DNA of 64,000 nucleotides from a virus (IMGVR_UViG_3300037424_000485:96001-160000), one strand, 5' to 3'. Positions 10,323 through 17,140 are shown, numbered from the stretch's first letter. Notes: generated by a model from the sequence alone, not told the origin. Program-made: numbers and translations.

Positions 10323-11177
10323 TTAATTGCATTTATTTCTTCTCATATCACAGCCTTTTTGCTTGTGTATTATATTGTGACATGCTTTGCATAATGTAAT
10401 ACAGTTATCAATATCAGCACTTTCAATAGGATTTATTTCTATCCCTTCAAAGTGGTGACAGTGTAATTGGGCATTGATATCACTACATTTTTGACACATC
10501 CAAATGTCTCTTTCTAATACTAATTTTCTTAATTGTGGTTGTACTTCTCTAGACGTGTTAGTTTTAAACCCTTTAGGATATACTTTTTGACCATATGTTC
10601 CACAAGATTTTTTGCAATTGTCAGAGCAATAAAGACTATTATCACTTGTATAATTTCCATTTATTGATAATATTCTACTAGATATGGACATATTAGTAGG
10701 CTTAAAATACTTACCACAATATTTGCATCTTACCTCAAGTGCTACGCCATCATCAGCCAATCTTGGCTCTTCTTCCATTGTTAGCTGATGAGCATATGTT
10801 TCGTATAATGCATGATATTTGTGATATTGTTTACACTTATTCTTTATATAATCAATATTATCAGTACGATATTGTTTACTTTTTTTCTTTATATAATCAA
10901 TATTATCGGTACGATATTGTTTCTTATATAAAGAAATGTCTTTTTTGTTGTCAATATAATATTGTTTTTGATATAACGAAACGTCTTTTTTGTTGTCAAT
11001 ATAATATTGTCTTGACTTCTCTATAATATCTTCTCTATTGTTAATATAGTGCTGTTTTCTACATTGTTTACAATTAAAGTTATGACCATCTTTTGCTGAT
11101 TTAGATATACCAAATTCATCAATAGATTTTATTTCATTACATTTAGTGCATTTTTTGGTATAAATATGGATAGACAT
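10323..11177 (-). CDS. HNH homing endonuclease, antisense insertion between gp62 and gp45; paralog of 26164..26895
   Basis: KKCTKCNE..SIDEF; KQYY.DN repeats; RDIWMCQKC...LHCHH...DNCITLCKACHN. Confidence 0.85.
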   Translation of the reverse strand: MSIHIYTKKCTKCNEIKSIDEFGISKSAKDGHNFNCKQCRKQHYINNREDIIEKSRQYYIDNKKDVSLYQKQYYIDNKKDISLYKKQYRTDNIDYIKKKSKQYRTDNIDYIKNKCKQYHKYHALYETYAHQLTMEEEPRLADDGVALEVRCKYCGKYFKPTNMSISSRILSINGNYTSDNSLYCSDNCKKSCGTYGQKVYPKGFKTNTSREVQPQLRKLVLERDIWMCQKCSDINAQLHCHHFEGIEINPIESADIDNCITLCKACHNIIHKQKGCDMRRNKCN

Positions 11178-11332: not shown

Positions 11333-12076
11333 TTGAACGTAAATATTGATAGCTTTAAAAATTTGTTGTTAAAGGGAACTCTTAATTATTCCTCATCGAA
11401 TATTGGCTTTACTGTAGATAAAGAAAGGATAAGAGTTGGTATGCGTGGAGATAATTATGTGGTTATCTTAAAAATGAATAATGATTTAATCCCAGATGTA
11501 AAAGGAGAAGCATCATTTTATTTTGACGAACCAAGTAACCAAATACGAACCCATTTAGATTTATTATCTGACTGTGAGAATGTAGAGATTGGTATTAAAG
11601 ACAATCATATTATTTTAAATGCGGATGGGCAAAAAAGTGTTATTCATTTCTGTTCTCCAAATTTAGTACCAACTTTTAGCGGTTCAGGCCCAAAAACAGA
11701 TGGCGTACATGTGTATGATGTAAAGATAAGTCATGAGTGGATGTATAATCTAGATAAAATTCAAAAAATAGCTAGTAAATTTAAGAAGATATATTTTGTT
11801 GTTAAGAATGGTAAAATATATATTGAAGCAACTGATAAAACAAACAGCTACTCTAATGGTCTGACATTCGAGCTAGGATCTACTGACCTATCAGATACAA
11901 TTATGTGTTTCGATTTTAAACCATTTTCCAATGCATTTAAGGTATTGGGGGATAGATATGAGGAATTCACCATGTCTGTTAATTATATAGAAAAACTGAA
12001 TGCAGGTATTATATCCTTTATTAATGAAGACGGAAGTGAAAAATATTTCATTTTAAGCAAAGATGATATAGATTAA
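11333..12076 (+). CDS. gp45: Sliding clamp (gp45-like); probable TTG start at 11333
   Basis: AGGAG RBS 7 nt before TTG; about 247 aa with clamp-like beta-rich pattern; follows gp44 and gp62 in T4 order. Confidence 0.7.
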   Translation: MNVNIDSFKNLLLKGTLNYSSSNIGFTVDKERIRVGMRGDNYVVILKMNNDLIPDVKGEASFYFDEPSNQIRTHLDLLSDCENVEIGIKDNHIILNADGQKSVIHFCSPNLVPTFSGSGPKTDGVHVYDVKISHEWMYNLDKIQKIASKFKKIYFVVKNGKIYIEATDKTNSYSNGLTFELGSTDLSDTIMCFDFKPFSNAFKVLGDRYEEFTMSVNYIEKLNAGIISFINEDGSEKYFILSKDDID

Positions 12077-12085
12077 AAATAAATG

Positions 12086-12114
12086 TTGACATATTATATC
12101 ACATAGGGTATAGT
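12086..12114 (+). promoter_or_regulatory. Sigma70-type promoter 1 upstream of the Ubl gene
   Basis: TTGACA-17 nt-TATAGT. Confidence 0.7.
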
Positions 12115-12218
12115 ATCTTTCATAATGAAGAGGATATGTTGTTAAAGTAAATAGGTTAGTCTCAATCCACGGATGATGATAGATCCAAAACTTTAACAAC
12201 ATAAACTCAAAAAAGGGG

Positions 12219-12247
12219 TTGACATTATAATTCATAAAGAGTATAGT
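12219..12247 (+). promoter_or_regulatory. Sigma70-type promoter 2 upstream of the Ubl gene
   Basis: TTGACA-17 nt-TATAGT. Confidence 0.75.
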
Positions 12248-12343
12248 GTCTATTAAATAGTAGAGGGATTAATATAGTCCCTAATTAAAGGTGTGTTAGA
12301 ATAATCTAACATGTTAATCAAAATTGTAAAAAGGAGATTTAAA

Positions 12344-12595
12344 ATGGCTTGGAACACTGAAACTACCCATGTTGCAAATGTAACCACTATTACCGTAAAT
12401 GGCTCTCGTCAGTCACTTGATTCATCAGTGGGCGAATCTTTCGGTTCGACTGTTGTAGAAGCAGCAGTCGCCGCAAATATGGGCAAATTCCGCGTATTTC
12501 TTAATGGAGCGGAGATTGATCAGGCAGATGCACCCACCACTATTACAGCTGGCATGGCTATTGAGCTGAAGCCCTACGATGTAGCAGGGATGTAA
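12344..12595 (+). CDS. Ubiquitin-like (beta-grasp, ThiS/MoaD/SAMP-type) protein, 83 aa, ending PYDVAG-M
   Basis: AAGGAG RBS; TITVNG...FRVFLNG.EI...ITAGMAIELKPYDVAG strand pattern; penultimate Gly; E2/E1/JAB genes downstream. Confidence 0.75.
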   Translation: MAWNTETTHVANVTTITVNGSRQSLDSSVGESFGSTVVEAAVAANMGKFRVFLNGAEIDQADAPTTITAGMAIELKPYDVAGM

Positions 12596-12629
12596 TGTCG
12601 TAAAATCAATGACTTATGTTGTTGAACAT

Positions 12630-12856
12630 GAGGACATCCGATATACCATTTTTAGCAAGTTATAATACCAGAGATTTGTACAATCTCGTCCCATGAAAGG
12701 ATACTTTCAGGTTATCATATCTCCCTTGTTAGGTGTATCAAAAATGTCATTTTATTAGCTGTTGACTCTGTGCTGGTTGTCCTATCAATGTACAGATAGA
12801 TTAAGAGGGTAGAAGTAGGACTGATGACCCTTTTGTTAATTTAAAATGATGTCCTC
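12630..12856 (+). ncRNA. Candidate structured RNA between the Ubl stop and a terminator
   Basis: Closing stem GAGGACATC/GATGTCCTC; internal helices GATATACC/GGTGTATC, GAGATT/AATCTC, CTATC/GATAG, AGGGT/ACCCT; no ORF over 30 aa found. Confidence 0.35.
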
Positions 12857-12860
12857 TTTT

Positions 12861-12900
12861 AAGGGATATAGACCAAACGGTTTATATCCCTTATTTTTTT
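12861..12900 (+). terminator. Rho-independent terminator
   Basis: AAGGGATATAGACC-aaac-GGTTTATATCCCTT followed by a T-tract. Confidence 0.8.
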
Positions 12901-13018
12901 GCCTTTTACAATAATAACTCTTGACAGATAATAATTTTTCTTATATATTAGGGGAAATGATTGTATTTTATTAATTATTAAAACTAAGGAAAAAATATGT
13001 GGACAACAGCAAGTAATA

Positions 13019-13414
13019 ATGGGAAAATCTCAAAAAAACATATGCCCTGAGTGTCATTGTGAGATTGGGGCTTTTCCTCTAACTTTTAAGGATGGAAGTC
13101 TGGGATGTGAAGAGTGTGTATTAGAGGATAATAAAAAGATAAAGTTTTCATGGTATCTAGACAATTATCCCTCTCTTGATATTGATGACTGCGAACGTCT
13201 TGATGAATATGGTGATATTACAAAACTAAAAAATAAATGGGTCACTATTATTTTTGGGGATTTTTTAAGTGCCTTGTGGTGTGCTGGATTTGATAATAAA
13301 CAAGATGTTGAAGATTTTCTTAAAGATTCCATCGAAGAAATCAATTCGGATTCAGATATAATCGTGTACCATTTTGGTAAGGTAGTTAATTGGAAATTTT
13401 CTATCGAAGATTGA
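13019..13414 (+). CDS. Zn-ribbon protein within the Ubl locus
   Basis: CPEC and CEEC; TTGACA promoter-like box upstream. Confidence 0.55.
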   Translation: MGKSQKNICPECHCEIGAFPLTFKDGSLGCEECVLEDNKKIKFSWYLDNYPSLDIDDCERLDEYGDITKLKNKWVTIIFGDFLSALWCAGFDNKQDVEDFLKDSIEEINSDSDIIVYHFGKVVNWKFSIED

Positions 13415-13498
13415 AATAATCCTTGACTTTTAATAGTTATGGGATTAAGATAGCCCAGATAGTATAAACAAATATTAATTCTAACTAAGGAAAATAAA

Positions 13499-14380
13499 AT
13501 GGTATCGTCAAAAACAGATGTTGAAAAACTACAAAAAGAGGTGTCTCTAGGAGTAGATGAAATCATCTCTGGTATCGATCTCACAGATATTCGTGCCTCT
13601 GGTATTATCATCACCGTAGGTGGAAAGCGCGTAAGGCTTGAGGTTGCTGAAGAGCAGATAGTTGAAGAAGATGCAATTCGTAAAGAACTGACTGAAAAAT
13701 TCAATGAGAAGCTTCAGTCAATTCGTAGCTTCGTTAATGAGAAGGCTATGAGTATTGAAAATGTACTCTCCACATATCGTAATGATTACGAAAAGAAAGA
13801 AAAAGCTCTTGATATTCGTCTTTCAGAGGCTAATATCATGCCAGACATTACACGCTCTCACTCATACAAGGGACTTTCTGTTGTTAAGGGTGGAGGGCCT
13901 ACTTATGCTGGTAGGGCTGATGTGTTTACATGGATCTATCGCACCACATATAAACCCACTAGGTGGAATGGCATTCCTCTAAATCAAAATTTTGCAAAGA
14001 AGATGATTACACCTATCATTATTGAACTTACAACTGAGAGAGATAAAATTCTTGCAATTCGTGTCAAAACATATATTGGAGATAGGGATTTTAGTCACTA
14101 TCACAACAATTGTTGGGGTGAATGGAAATATAGTGCAGAGATAGTAAAGACACCTGATGATATCCTACGTGTTTGTGAAACAGCATCTGCTGTACTTGAT
14201 AATATCAATGGAAGGTCTTTAGCTCAGAGTGCTCCGAATGGTTTGCCTAGAGCATCTACCGTTGAAAAAAATGTTATCAAAACAAATCCAGGGGCATCAA
14301 CTGTTGTATCGAGTAATAGAGCAGATGAAAGGGCCGGTCTTGATATGACTGTAGAACCTGATTCTGGATGGACAACTTGA
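13499..14380 (+). CDS. Prokaryotic E2-like (UBC-fold) conjugating enzyme with N-terminal coiled coil
   Basis: FSHYHNNCWG resembles the HPH..CWG/CLG catalytic segment of Prok-E2 families; downstream VLDNINGRS resembles the L..PN..S element; context next to ThiF and JAB. Confidence 0.65.
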   Translation: MVSSKTDVEKLQKEVSLGVDEIISGIDLTDIRASGIIITVGGKRVRLEVAEEQIVEEDAIRKELTEKFNEKLQSIRSFVNEKAMSIENVLSTYRNDYEKKEKALDIRLSEANIMPDITRSHSYKGLSVVKGGGPTYAGRADVFTWIYRTTYKPTRWNGIPLNQNFAKKMITPIIIELTTERDKILAIRVKTYIGDRDFSHYHNNCWGEWKYSAEIVKTPDDILRVCETASAVLDNINGRSLAQSAPNGLPRASTVEKNVIKTNPGASTVVSSNRADERAGLDMTVEPDSGWTT

Positions 14381-14555
14381 TTAAAACATAAGGGGTCGAA
14401 ATATACCCCTTATAGTAAGGTATGGATATCTTGTCTAATAATAATAATATTTCTGAAAATAGTTGAGTTCTTTTATTCATTAAAAACTTCTTGACTATAC
14501 CTAAAAATATGGTATATTGTCTTTATAGATTAAATATTAACAAAGAGAGGGATAT

Positions 14556-15167
14556 ATGTCACTAGGTGGAACGCTTTATAATCGTCAAGAAACATTAGGT
14601 CTAAATGTTGATCAATCCGTGGTTTGTATCGGCGCGGGTGGAATTGGATTCCATGTAACCAAAATGCTTGCAATGTCTGGTATTAAAAATCTGTTTGTGT
14701 TTGATACAGACATTTTTGAAGAGCATAATCTTAATCGTATCGACTGTCCTACTGATTGTATTGGTATGAACAAAGCTGATGCTATCAAGATGTTCGTTGA
14801 GCAGATGCGTCCAGATTGCTATATTAAAGCATTCCCATATCAATTCTCTCCATCTTTTGTTAATATGGCAGAAATTGATTGGATTGTTGACTGTACCGAT
14901 GTTTTTGAAGCACAATTGAAACATCAGGGATTTGCAGATCAATACAAAGTAAAGTACCAGAAAGCTGGATATGATGGAGAATCAATGTCCATCAATAGCA
15001 GAGTTGGCACATGGGATACAGGTAATACTCCTGATGGTTATCAAATAACCCCCTCATGGGTTGTTCCTACTATTATTATTGCGGCTTTGGCTGTTGGGAA
15101 AGTTCTGAAATATACAACTGGTGAGATGGGTTGTAATTTAAAAGACTTTTATACATTATCAGATTAA
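14556..15167 (+). CDS. ThiF/MoeB/E1-family adenylating enzyme
   Basis: GAGGIG, D.D.FEEHNLNR, IGMNKA, WIVDCTD motifs. Confidence 0.92.
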   Translation: MSLGGTLYNRQETLGLNVDQSVVCIGAGGIGFHVTKMLAMSGIKNLFVFDTDIFEEHNLNRIDCPTDCIGMNKADAIKMFVEQMRPDCYIKAFPYQFSPSFVNMAEIDWIVDCTDVFEAQLKHQGFADQYKVKYQKAGYDGESMSINSRVGTWDTGNTPDGYQITPSWVVPTIIIAALAVGKVLKYTTGEMGCNLKDFYTLSD

Positions 15168-15185
15168 TACAATAGAGGAATAACC

Positions 15186-15650
15186 ATGGTTAATATTACA
15201 TGCAAGAAAATACAGACATATGTAATCAGTGCTGATGAGATTTACAATCTCATCTTAGATAAATATGATGCTGTTGATGGTAAATTTGGACAATTGTTCC
15301 TATATAAAGAGACTGTATCTACAGTTATTGATAAACAAGATTTATTTGAATTTTCTATTGTTCTTAATGATAATGAAAAGGCGTTTAAATTACCACCATA
15401 TAACACTGGTGGTGAATGTATATCAGTAAATAAGGCGTGGGAAGTTCCAGCAACTCCTTTATCTCTGAACGAACCATGGACAGTTACACCTATTAAACAT
15501 GTACATCCTGAAAGTAAACCATTTATTGGTGACTCATGGACAACAGAAAAACCCAGCGATCTCCCCATTATAGACGATATTTATTCTGTTGTGGATAATG
15601 ATCTTCCTATCGTGGATGATGATTTTGAAGAGGCCGGTGGTTCACAATAA
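15186..15650 (+). CDS. Hypothetical protein between E1 and JAB (PWT repeats, acidic tail)
   Basis: RBS GAGG; operonic position. Confidence 0.6.
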   Translation: MVNITCKKIQTYVISADEIYNLILDKYDAVDGKFGQLFLYKETVSTVIDKQDLFEFSIVLNDNEKAFKLPPYNTGGECISVNKAWEVPATPLSLNEPWTVTPIKHVHPESKPFIGDSWTTEKPSDLPIIDDIYSVVDNDLPIVDDDFEEAGGSQ

Positions 15651-15676
15651 GTTATACAATAATATCAATACTATAG

Positions 15677-17140
15677 GTGGACATGATGGGATTGCGAAGA
15701 CAGAAATATAAAGGGATGATAAAAAATAGAAATGTAAAAAGTATCTTGGATCAATTTAAAGAGAGGGATATCGATAAAGGACGAGATATGTATATCCACT
15801 CAGATTCATGTATTAAAAATGACTGTAATATCCCCCTAAATGTAAGAGGTGGTTTGCTTGGTAGAGTATTTACGCCTAGTGTGGTATATACCCCACCAGC
15901 TCCCGATTACTGGCAAGCACCAGAGCCAAAAGAGATTAAATATCATGCTCTAGCTCCACAACAACATGATGTTATTTTTACTCAATTGGTAAAAGCAAAA
16001 ATCGATACTCTGATGTCTGCATATCCTAACATTGAGTGGCTGGTATATCTGTCTGGAAAGAGAGAGGACAATACAACATATATTAACGATTTGATTGTTC
16101 CTGTTCAGAGTGTTACCAGTGTCCGTGTTGATAAAATTGAACTTGAGAATATGGGATCTCTTCCTATTGTTGGTGTTATGCACTCACATCATGGTATGGG
16201 AAACGGTTTCTCAGGTACTGATGATATGTTTATCAATGCAAACCATCTTCTGTCTTTGTGTATCTCACATGGTGGTATCAACGGTCAATTTCGATGGGGT
16301 ACTCCTGAAGGTGATCAGGTTATGATCAAAGCATCTGTAAAAATTGAATACAGCTTTGGTTTTGATGCTGAAGAATTTAAAAAGCATTGTAGTGAAAATA
16401 TCTCAGAAATTACATACGCTAATCACGGACGTAATTTTGGATATCTCACCAATACACGAAATGCATATTGTAACATTATGAATCCATCACTTGATGATTT
16501 GATGGAAGAATTATCTGATGGAGATACTGATGGAATCGGATTCATGCATCATGGATCTACAGATATTGCCAATATTCCTAACAATTTTATCATACCGCCT
16601 GATAATTGCCCTTCTTGTAATAGTGTAGATATTGTCGATAGCGGGGATGGATGGTTCTGTAGTGTATGTGGTGATGAAGGATATCATTTCGAGGAAGGTA
16701 GCATTGGATTCAATGATGTCCCTGTTGATGAGCATCGATATTTTGATAATATTTCAGAAAGACCCAAAGAAAGCGTCAAATCTAATACATATCCTCTTAA
16801 ATCAGAGGATTTTGAAGAGGCCGAGAGTTTAGGATATATCCAATGTGAGAGGTGTTTATCCCATTTCGATAAAATTGATGTGTATATGGGAAATCATCCA
16901 ACAGATCATATTGACGGAGATCCTGAGTGTTCTCTGTGTAAGGAGTGTTTCGTAATATTGAAATATCATCCTAAAGCATCAACAGTTCCATTTACCTGGA
17001 CTACATCAAAGGAAGTAGAGGTAATTACAGACGGTGTTCAATGTGCTAAGTGTGATTCAATTCATATTGTTGATAACATTGTTAGCACTCCAATAGGTAA
17101 TATCTGTAGAGGATGTTATAATCTTTGGTTAAGAAGGTAA
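15677..17140 (+). CDS. JAB/MPN+ metalloprotease (Prok-JAB) with C-terminal multiple Zn ribbons
   Basis: EWLVYL and GVMHSHHGMGNGFSGTDD (E...HxHx7Sx2D); CPSC..CSVC, CERC..CSLC, CAKC..CRGC. Confidence 0.88.
   Translation: MDMMGLRRQKYKGMIKNRNVKSILDQFKERDIDKGRDMYIHSDSCIKNDCNIPLNVRGGLLGRVFTPSVVYTPPAPDYWQAPEPKEIKYHALAPQQHDVIFTQLVKAKIDTLMSAYPNIEWLVYLSGKREDNTTYINDLIVPVQSVTSVRVDKIELENMGSLPIVGVMHSHHGMGNGFSGTDDMFINANHLLSLCISHGGINGQFRWGTPEGDQVMIKASVKIEYSFGFDAEEFKKHCSENISEITYANHGRNFGYLTNTRNAYCNIMNPSLDDLMEELSDGDTDGIGFMHHGSTDIANIPNNFIIPPDNCPSCNSVDIVDSGDGWFCSVCGDEGYHFEEGSIGFNDVPVDEHRYFDNISERPKESVKSNTYPLKSEDFEEAESLGYIQCERCLSHFDKIDVYMGNHPTDHIDGDPECSLCKECFVILKYHPKASTVPFTWTTSKEVEVITDGVQCAKCDSIHIVDNIVSTPIGNICRGCYNLWLRR

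Follow-up and report, generated by a model that had tools for sequence, protein, structure and literature searches.

The window analysed here, a 64,000-nucleotide stretch of viral DNA, comes from a linear IMG/VR virus record (IMGVR_UViG_3300037424_000485; 204,431 bp, estimated to be 85% complete), of which it covers bases 96001-160000. Between positions 12086 and 17140 it holds a gene cluster that we read, with a probability of about 60%, as a phage-borne ubiquitin-like conjugation module of four core genes, encoding the precursor of a ubiquitin-like protein (Ubl), an E2-like protein, a minimal ThiF-type E1, and a JAB/JAMM metalloprotease. Ubl/E1/E2/JAB operons have so far been described only as bacterial anti-phage defence, a role that was shown recently. 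A complete and widely conserved phage counterpart would put ubiquitin-like tagging on both sides of the conflict.

The cluster had been singled out in a first-pass annotation of the window, made from the sequence alone, which described six genes as a complete system. The six open reading frames (ORFs) are all found on the + strand where that annotation had placed them, and the motifs it quoted are all present, namely PYDVAG-M in the Ubl, HYHNNCWG and LDNINGRS in the E2-like protein, and GAGGIG, NLNR, and VDCTD in the E1. These motifs are invariant in 19-25 homologues. The description as a complete six-gene system was nevertheless overstated, as two of the genes, encoding a Zn-ribbon protein and a protein of 154 amino acids (aa), are only accessories of a subclade.

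Putative Ubl precursor, E1, JAB protease, and their linkage

The first core gene (12344-12595) encodes a protein of 83 aa. Its ATG at 12344 lies 8 nt downstream of an AGGAG sequence, and the homologues start at the same place. Across 25 Ubl homologues, Gly82 is invariant and is followed by 0-5 unrelated residues (none in ten sequences). The window protein ends with a single Met83 after Gly82, and the tails observed after the Gly are M, A, T, F, R, SK, AK, AE, VE, LV, ASA, LAE, LVMA, RANR, NVNP, and LERGF. Variable tails after an invariant Gly are, as far as sequence can tell, the signature of a Ubl precursor that would need trimming by a peptidase. This is the pattern predicted by the JAB trimming that had been proposed for this locus, and it is the best single argument for the suggested relation between JAB and Ubl. 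Leads on the nature of the protein, not proof, came from a PDB profile search with the Ubl family, which returned a designed ubiquitin (E 0.38) and SUMO (E 1.2), and from a language-model comparison, in which all neighbours bearing a family belonged to ThiS, SAMP2, or Ub-Mut7C clusters (0.87-0.93). A weak Pfam match to ThiS was obtained for one of the 25 members (E 0.14), and no match to PF02597 was found anywhere in the genome.

The product of the last gene of the cluster (15677-17140; 487 aa) had been annotated as a JAB protease, and both a profile match and a complete JAMM motif substantiate this assignment. The Prok-JAB profile (PF14464) scored 24.9 bits against the whole protein, with a cut-off of 25, and 27.9 bits in a six-frame search. 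The residues of the JAMM motif, E120, H169-S-H171, S179, and D182 (E...HSH-x7-S-xx-D), are invariant in 24 sequences, and over this motif the protein aligns weakly with AMSH-like JAMM proteases. The Cys-rich C-terminal extension is lineage-specific, and the orthologues range from 234 to 643 aa.

The assignment of the third core protein (14556-15167; 203 aa) as a ThiF-type E1 was also supported: the Pfam ThiF profile (PF00899; cut-off 28.1 bits) matched with 85.4 bits (E 4.4e-24), and the motif is intact. The 19 orthologues are single-domain proteins of 192-208 residues and share G26xG28G29xxG, D50, N58-L-N-R61, K73, and D112-C-T-D115 without exception. In systems of this kind, no smaller E1 has been seen. 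The CxxC Zn motif is lacking, as had been noted before, and so is a rhodanese domain. Instead of a Cys, the crossover region carries the invariant residues W153, G161, Y162, S167, and W168. The best sequence matches in the PDB were the Cap2 E1 domain, MccB, UBA3, Uba4, and UBA5, while the best NCBIfam matches were ThiF and MoeB models and, of the Cap2-type 'E1-E2' models, PADLOC matched the E1 part alone. A role in MccB-like peptide-nucleotide synthesis was considered, with MccB scoring as well as Cap2, and was set aside; the linked genes are Ubl-like, JAB, and UBC-like.

For the analysis of gene linkage, 29 related loci (L002-L030; 27-68% identity) were compared by profile searches. In a scan of viral contigs, a single protein as query found nothing, whereas an alignment query found 26 loci. 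The order sliding clamp, Ubl, E2-like protein, E1, JAB is kept in 23 of the 29 loci, and the part from the E2-like gene to JAB in one more contig that is cut. The five loci that show no E1 or JAB gene comprise four fragments that are 3-11% complete (L017-L019 and L024) and one contig that ends just past the E2-like gene (L025). Distant homologues of the E2-like protein (E 2e-14 to 7e-6) occur in phage contigs with other neighbours, for example AAA_25, ClpP, and RNase H. ThiF directly adjoins the distant E2-like gene in all four contigs with readable neighbours, and Prok-JAB is present in three of these four. Furthermore, a Ubl homologue of ~80 aa, ending PYDKAA or HDTAG, was observed beside the distant E2-like genes in L031 and L032, the two for which DNA was available. 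Since the linkage extends beyond the T4-like clade to which the source record belongs, the four genes travel together as a module. The co-occurrence in related phages that the first-pass annotation had called for was thus found for the four core genes, which, judged from this linkage, are one conserved and mobile phage module.

Several variant layouts were observed among the related loci. The four fragments L017, L018, L019, and L024 carry a Ubl gene (product ending AGF or AGR) and an E2-like gene with no E1 or JAB gene within 5 kb, and downstream of the E2-like gene they share a conserved pair of ~365 aa and ~210 aa proteins with no Pfam match. In L035, a small fragment of a closer relative, the E2-like gene lies near a DNA ligase gene and no Ubl gene was seen. 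Tandem E2-like paralogues (329 and 248 aa) stand between the Ubl and E1 genes in L028:4908-6650 and L029:4908-6650, where JAB measures 643 aa. In L009:4956-5861, a frameshift or a sequencing error breaks the E2-like gene into two ORFs, and L005:5865-8162 shows an extra gap and a second E1 fragment of 59 aa. Finally, a scan of 185,579 species genomes with one peptide pattern, which is not an exhaustive search, gave a single match on a 27,887-bp contig in a metagenome-assembled genome. This contig (L037; JRFF01000039.1) has the length of the IMG/VR viral contig behind L020 and is filed under 'Candidatus Izimaplasma bacterium HR2'. It is probably a phage contig that was binned with the bacterium and offers at most a weak hint of a host.

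The E2-like protein family

The second core gene (13499-14380) encodes a protein of 293 aa with an N-terminal helical or coiled-coil region, a UBC-like domain (residues ~108-265), and a tail ending GWTT. None of the known E2 families (PF00179 UQ_con and PF14457-14462 Prok-E2) matched the window protein or 22 family members even at E <=5, and PF14460 and PF00179 had no match in the genome. Searched as a profile against the PDB, the family likewise gave chance matches only. The family itself is large. A search of 1.8 billion representatives returned 193 clusters at 50% identity, 73 of them at E <=1e-30, and 22 sequences are close homologues of the window protein. Its members were met almost solely in viral and metagenome contigs and never in the cultured phages searched.

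In the full-length structure model, a long helix lies at the N-terminus, and the C-terminal domain is predicted well. Because helical matches to the N-terminal coiled coil filled the list obtained with the full-length model in VIA-align, the C-terminal domain was refolded alone (residues 108-270), reaching a predicted local distance difference test score (pLDDT) of 85.8 and a predicted TM-score (pTM) of 0.80. VIA-align, a comparison with 48,161 representative chains that is independent of Foldseek, then returned ten chains with Z >=5, all of which are E2 or RWD domains, although the tool itself calls Z values of 5-6 non-decisive, since they may reflect a mere common arrangement. Almost all of the top 50 chains are E2, UEV, or RWD domains (Z 3.8-6.0), and the fits align ~118 residues at a root-mean-square deviation of ~4.3 Å, spanning model residues 1-154. 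Re-comparison of the candidates proposed by Foldseek gave the same picture, with E2, UEV, or RWD domains in 50 of 50 cases and Z values up to 6.0. The Bub complex chain 9eav_D was also among the structural matches (Z 3.9). In addition, the order of strands and helices in the domain model is that of the UBC core, and Prok-E2_D is present in 11% of the members of an Atlas structural neighbour cluster (TM-score 0.55). Taken together, the models make a UBC-like fold likely, not proven, because the Z values fall in the non-decisive range.

Alignment of 25 E2-like sequences revealed the invariant residues F198, H200, Y201, H202, C205, W206, G207, L233, N235, N237, S240, P246, and P250. In the domain model, the HYH...C motif falls in the loop that joins the last strand to the long helix. 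The first His and the Cys are 10 residues apart in most homologues, which equals the HPN...Cys spacing of E2s, and 5 residues apart in the window protein. Distant relatives keep HYH-x(5-7)-DC[WL]G. The family thus appears to carry HYH...C where E2s carry HPN...C, and the persistence of this motif in distant relatives points to an active site. The earlier naming of this protein as an E2 therefore holds in part: the predicted UBC-like fold, with its modest Z values, and the invariant HYH...C speak for it, whereas no sequence profile matches it to E2s.

A short acidic-Trp motif recurs in three proteins of the window locus, namely the Ubl, the E2-like protein, and the 154-aa protein. At the N-terminus of the Ubl it reads E-x-W-[GND] or WNT (MAWNTETT in the window, 12344-12365; the motif is also found in L013-L030). 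At the extreme C-terminus of the E2-like protein it reads D-V-W-[STG]-x, with W291 kept in at least 90% of the sequences and DSGWTT in the window (14363-14377). WTT or WNT is also present in the 154-aa protein (DSWTTE, ~15531-15548) and in its counterpart in the related locus L036 (L036:3615-3938). The Ubl of the L002 clade lacks the motif, and the E2-like protein of that clade starts with MxAWD. These sequences may represent a shared docking motif.

Proposed pathway and alternative explanations

In the pathway that we propose, the small protein would be made as a precursor with one Met after Gly82 in the window. JAB would remove the residues that follow the invariant Gly, exposing Gly82, and may also reverse conjugates later. 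The minimal E1 would adenylate the exposed Gly82 carboxylate with ATP, and the activated Ubl would pass to the invariant Cys205 of the UBC-like protein. As an E1 without a conserved Cys cannot form the usual E1 thioester, this transfer might occur directly from the adenylate or, by analogy to Bub, via an E1 oxyester on Tyr162 or Ser167. From Cys205, the Ubl would be moved to lysines of phage or host proteins. A structure prediction in which two E1 copies and Ubl 1-82 were combined with the E2-like protein, the partner that was scored, yielded 0.01 compared to a mark of 0.32, a result that counts neither way on binding. Extending this proposal, tailed phages may run their own Ubl-tagging cascade, built on an unrecognised E2 family and a Cys-less E1 of ~200 residues and used early in infection on host or phage proteins, such as defence proteins or, in the T4-like clade, parts of the replisome including the neighbouring clamp. 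We hold this wider proposal tentatively, at slightly less than an even chance.

A number of observations weigh against conjugation by this module. The E2-like protein has no match in Pfam, PHROGs, PADLOC, or NCBIfam, its VIA-align support lies in the range just described, and Foldseek found nothing significant for either E2-like model in the PDB, AFDB clusters, AFDB Swiss-Prot, or BFVD (E-values for the domain were all >0.1, with E2s only among the weak PDB rows). The Ubl is equally without a match in Pfam, NCBIfam, PADLOC, and PHROGs; its beta-grasp fold is presumed, it ends in a single Gly after Ala (AG) and not in GG, and one distant homologue ends in AA. In the E1, no Cys is conserved after residue 113 in the 19 sequences, so that the canonical catalytic Cys is missing, as is also common in sulfur-carrier E1s such as ThiF and MoeB. 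A few fragmentary relatives (L017-L019, L024, and L035) have an E2-like gene without adjacent E1 or JAB genes.

Part of this evidence would fit a sulfur-carrier pathway of the ThiS/MoaD/QbsE/CysO type, in which JAB would trim the carrier, the E1 would adenylate it, and a host sulfur donor would make the thiocarboxylate. The 293-aa protein would then be a new enzyme or scaffold through which the phage would use this sulfur to build a thiolated nucleotide, cofactor, or metabolite. ThiS-like clusters as the nearest feature neighbours of the Ubl, ThiF and MoeB as the best NCBIfam matches of the E1, and the lack of a conserved catalytic Cys, as expected of a plain adenylating enzyme, all agree with such a role, and JAMM proteases trim or release sulfur carriers in QbsE/QbsD and CysO/Mec. 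However, no Rhodanese, ATP_bind_3 (PP-loop ATPase), or MoaE match was found in the 204-kb record, estimated to be 85% complete, in accordance with the earlier remark that no sulfur-metabolism genes are nearby, and the E1 has neither the CxxC Zn motif nor a rhodanese domain. The Ubl terminus is AG, or AA in the distant member, compared to GG in known carriers. Moreover, the invariably linked partner with a predicted UBC-like fold and an E2-like His...Cys has no equivalent in known sulfur pathways, and we consider sulfur transfer improbable. The same partner bears on ligation by the E1 without an E2, known from the archaeal SAMP/UbaA and Thermus TtuB/TtuC systems; here the UBC-like protein would not be a catalytic E2 but the main substrate, an adaptor of the UEV/RWD type that selects targets, or a regulator. 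The fold matches include the non-catalytic RWD and UEV relatives, with Z values equal to those of true E2s, no sequence profile for E2s recognises the 293-aa protein, its long N-terminal coiled coil and conserved tail are typical of adaptors, and the main in vitro product of Bub is the Ubl linked to the E2 itself. Yet the 25 close sequences share H200, H202, and C205 without exception and HYH...DC[WL]G persists in distant ones, pointing to an active site whose spacing mimics the HPN...Cys of E2s. We consider ligation by the E1 alone unlikely.

The third explanation that we weighed concerns counter-defence. Here, JAB would strip Ubl or CD-NTase conjugates made by host Bil or type II CBASS systems, or the set of Ubl, E1, and E2-like protein would act as a decoy or competitor without targets of its own. 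Host Ubl systems (Bil, CBASS) do attack phages, the genes are accompanied by early-type promoter-like boxes, and no other proteins are closer to the E1 than the Cap2 E1 domains. On the other hand, a decoy or deconjugase alone would not need four co-conserved genes with an intact adenylating E1 and a precursor Ubl, and apart from the generic E1 domain no PADLOC model for Bil or Cap3 was matched. A module devoted mainly to counter-defence has only a small chance of being the right answer.

Genomic setting and comparison with known systems

The source record is T4-like. Among its genes are those for the clamp loader, a gp45-type clamp, and a family B polymerase. The term jumbo phage, used in the first-pass annotation, is loose for this record of ~204 kb. 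Its polymerase shares only ~28% identity with those of T4-like cyanophages, and the record stands far apart from cultured phages. Among 50,697 GenBank phages no cultured relative turned up, with no tblastn match for the clamp, E1, or JAB and no megablast match for the DNA of the region.

The sliding clamp gene (gp45-like; 11333-12076, +) lies directly upstream of the module, as had been reported, and matches phrog_223 (DNA polymerase processivity factor) with an E-value of 3.6e-9. It probably starts at TTG 11333, 8 nt after an AGGAG sequence, and not at GTG 11201; the ORF from GTG 11201 includes a hydrophobic extension of 44 residues that has no counterpart in the homologues. The clamp gene precedes the Ubl gene in 28 of the 29 related loci, and this adjacency is confined to the T4-like clade, where it is the general gene order. 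The earlier suggestion of the clamp as a substrate is weakened by the occurrence of the module beside other genes in further phage contigs, and it is kept only as a speculative sub-hypothesis.

The genes for the Zn-ribbon protein (13019-13414; 131 aa, CPEC...CEEC) and for the acidic 154-aa protein of no known family (15186-15650) have no homologue in L002-L030, and their products have no match in Pfam, PHROGs, PADLOC, or NCBIfam. A relative with 66% identity (L036) encodes, upstream of its E2-like gene, a Zn-ribbon homologue (33% identity, E 1e-16) and, after the E1, a weak counterpart of the 154-aa protein (E 0.012). Both genes are accessories of a narrow subclade. Homing-endonuclease traffic was observed near the module: an HNH gene lies between the clamp-loader and clamp genes of the window (10323-11177, -), and a GIY-YIG gene lies between the E2-like and E1 genes of L036 (L036:1983-2669, -). 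We group with this traffic the extra gap in L005 and the split E2-like gene of L009.

Promoter-like boxes are present where the first-pass annotation had placed them at the Ubl, Zn-ribbon, and E1 genes. The two boxes upstream of Ubl (12086-12114 and 12219-12247) both read TTGACA-17-TATAGT (11/12 match each), the box upstream of the Zn-ribbon gene (12921-12949) reads TTGACA-17-TATATT (11/12), and the box upstream of the E1 gene (14491-14518) reads TTGACT-16-TATATT with an extended TG (10/12). TTGACA-N17-TATAnT occurs nine times in the window (5777, 12086, 12219, 12921, 26258, 40130, 41412, 47277, and 55582), and three of the nine sites fall in the Ubl region. With only 0.16 copies expected from shuffled sequences, we regard it as a real element of this genome. 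It is probably the early-promoter consensus of the phage, and the boxes suggest that the module may be expressed early. A strong, terminator-like hairpin (12860-12893, +; 15-bp stem and T run) implies that the Ubl gene is a transcription unit of its own. Between the Ubl stop codon and this hairpin lies an untranslated stretch of 265 nt with no ORF of at least 30 aa (12596-12893); 3' untranslated regions of phage genes are usually shorter. No credible Rfam match was found between 12000 and 17700.

In the literature, we found no description of a phage-encoded set of Ubl, E2, E1, and JAB, and neither JAB nor ThiF is mentioned in a survey of jumbo phages. What appears new, on the basis of the sequences compared, is an E2-like family without a sequence link to known ones together with a minimal, Cys-less E1. 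If our reading is true, the module would be the first Ubl 'writer' system in a bacterial virus and would mirror the Bil, Bub, and CBASS systems of the hosts. An E1 of the smallest size seen, without a catalytic Cys, would also bear on the evolution of E1-E2 chemistry. Should its targets turn out to be host defence or replisome proteins, the module would represent a new mode of phage takeover. The compact four-gene set can be rebuilt in E. coli.

With respect to gene content, the phage module is closest to Bil (BilABCD). Both consist of four separate genes, for a Ubl, an E2 or E2-like protein with a Cys at the catalytic position, a JAB/JAMM peptidase, and an E1, and both do without an E3; in addition, the Bil Ubl needs an exposed C-terminal Gly. 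In contrast to the phage-encoded module, Bil is bacterial and defends against phage. Its E1 is large, with inactive-active tandem adenylation domains and a Cys domain, whereas the phage E1 has ~200 aa in one domain and lacks a conserved Cys. Furthermore, the phage E2-like protein falls into no known sequence family, and none of the module proteins matched the PADLOC Bil models. Type II CBASS resembles the module in combining E1 and E2 chemistry with a JAB peptidase (Cap2/Cap3), and in both the PDB and PADLOC the phage E1 matched the Cap2 E1 domain best. However, Cap2 is an E2-E1 fusion that carries out conjugation of a CD-NTase's C-terminus and not of a Ubl, and the phage module contains no CD-NTase or effector gene. 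Sulfur-carrier systems such as ThiS-ThiF, MoaD-MoeB, and QbsE-QbsC-QbsD likewise pair a small carrier ending in a C-terminal Gly with a ThiF-type enzyme, and a JAMM protease trims the carrier in the Qbs and CysO systems. The phage module differs from them in its AG terminus in place of GG, in its E1 without a CxxC Zn site, and in the UBC-like partner that is always present.

In its E1 chemistry, the module may be closest to Bub (6E/DUF6527), if the analogy holds. The Bub E1 lacks a crossover-loop Cys and uses an invariant Tyr, which sets a precedent for a Cys-less E1 (PMC11601596). It is a minimal ThiF/UBA5-like enzyme, and the phage E1 similarly has Y162 and S167 and no Cys; a JAB protease also processes the pre-Ubl in Bub. 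Unlike the phage E2-like protein, which keeps an invariant Cys, the Bub E2 uses Ser and His and forms oxyesters. The Bub genes are fused (Ubl-E2, JAB-E1, or E2-E1), while the phage genes are all separate; the serine protease BubE is always part of Bub, whereas no BubE-like gene was seen in the phage module; and sequence searches with the phage E1 did not return the Bub E1. Finally, the only other phage-borne pairing of Ubl and JAB that we found in the literature is that of the tail-assembly proteins TAPI/TAPK of lambdoid phages and T1, which join a Ub-like domain with JAB-NlpC/P60 (PMC1779556). TAPI/TAPK are encoded among tail genes and without an E1 or E2, whereas the four-gene module of the window lies among early or replication genes.

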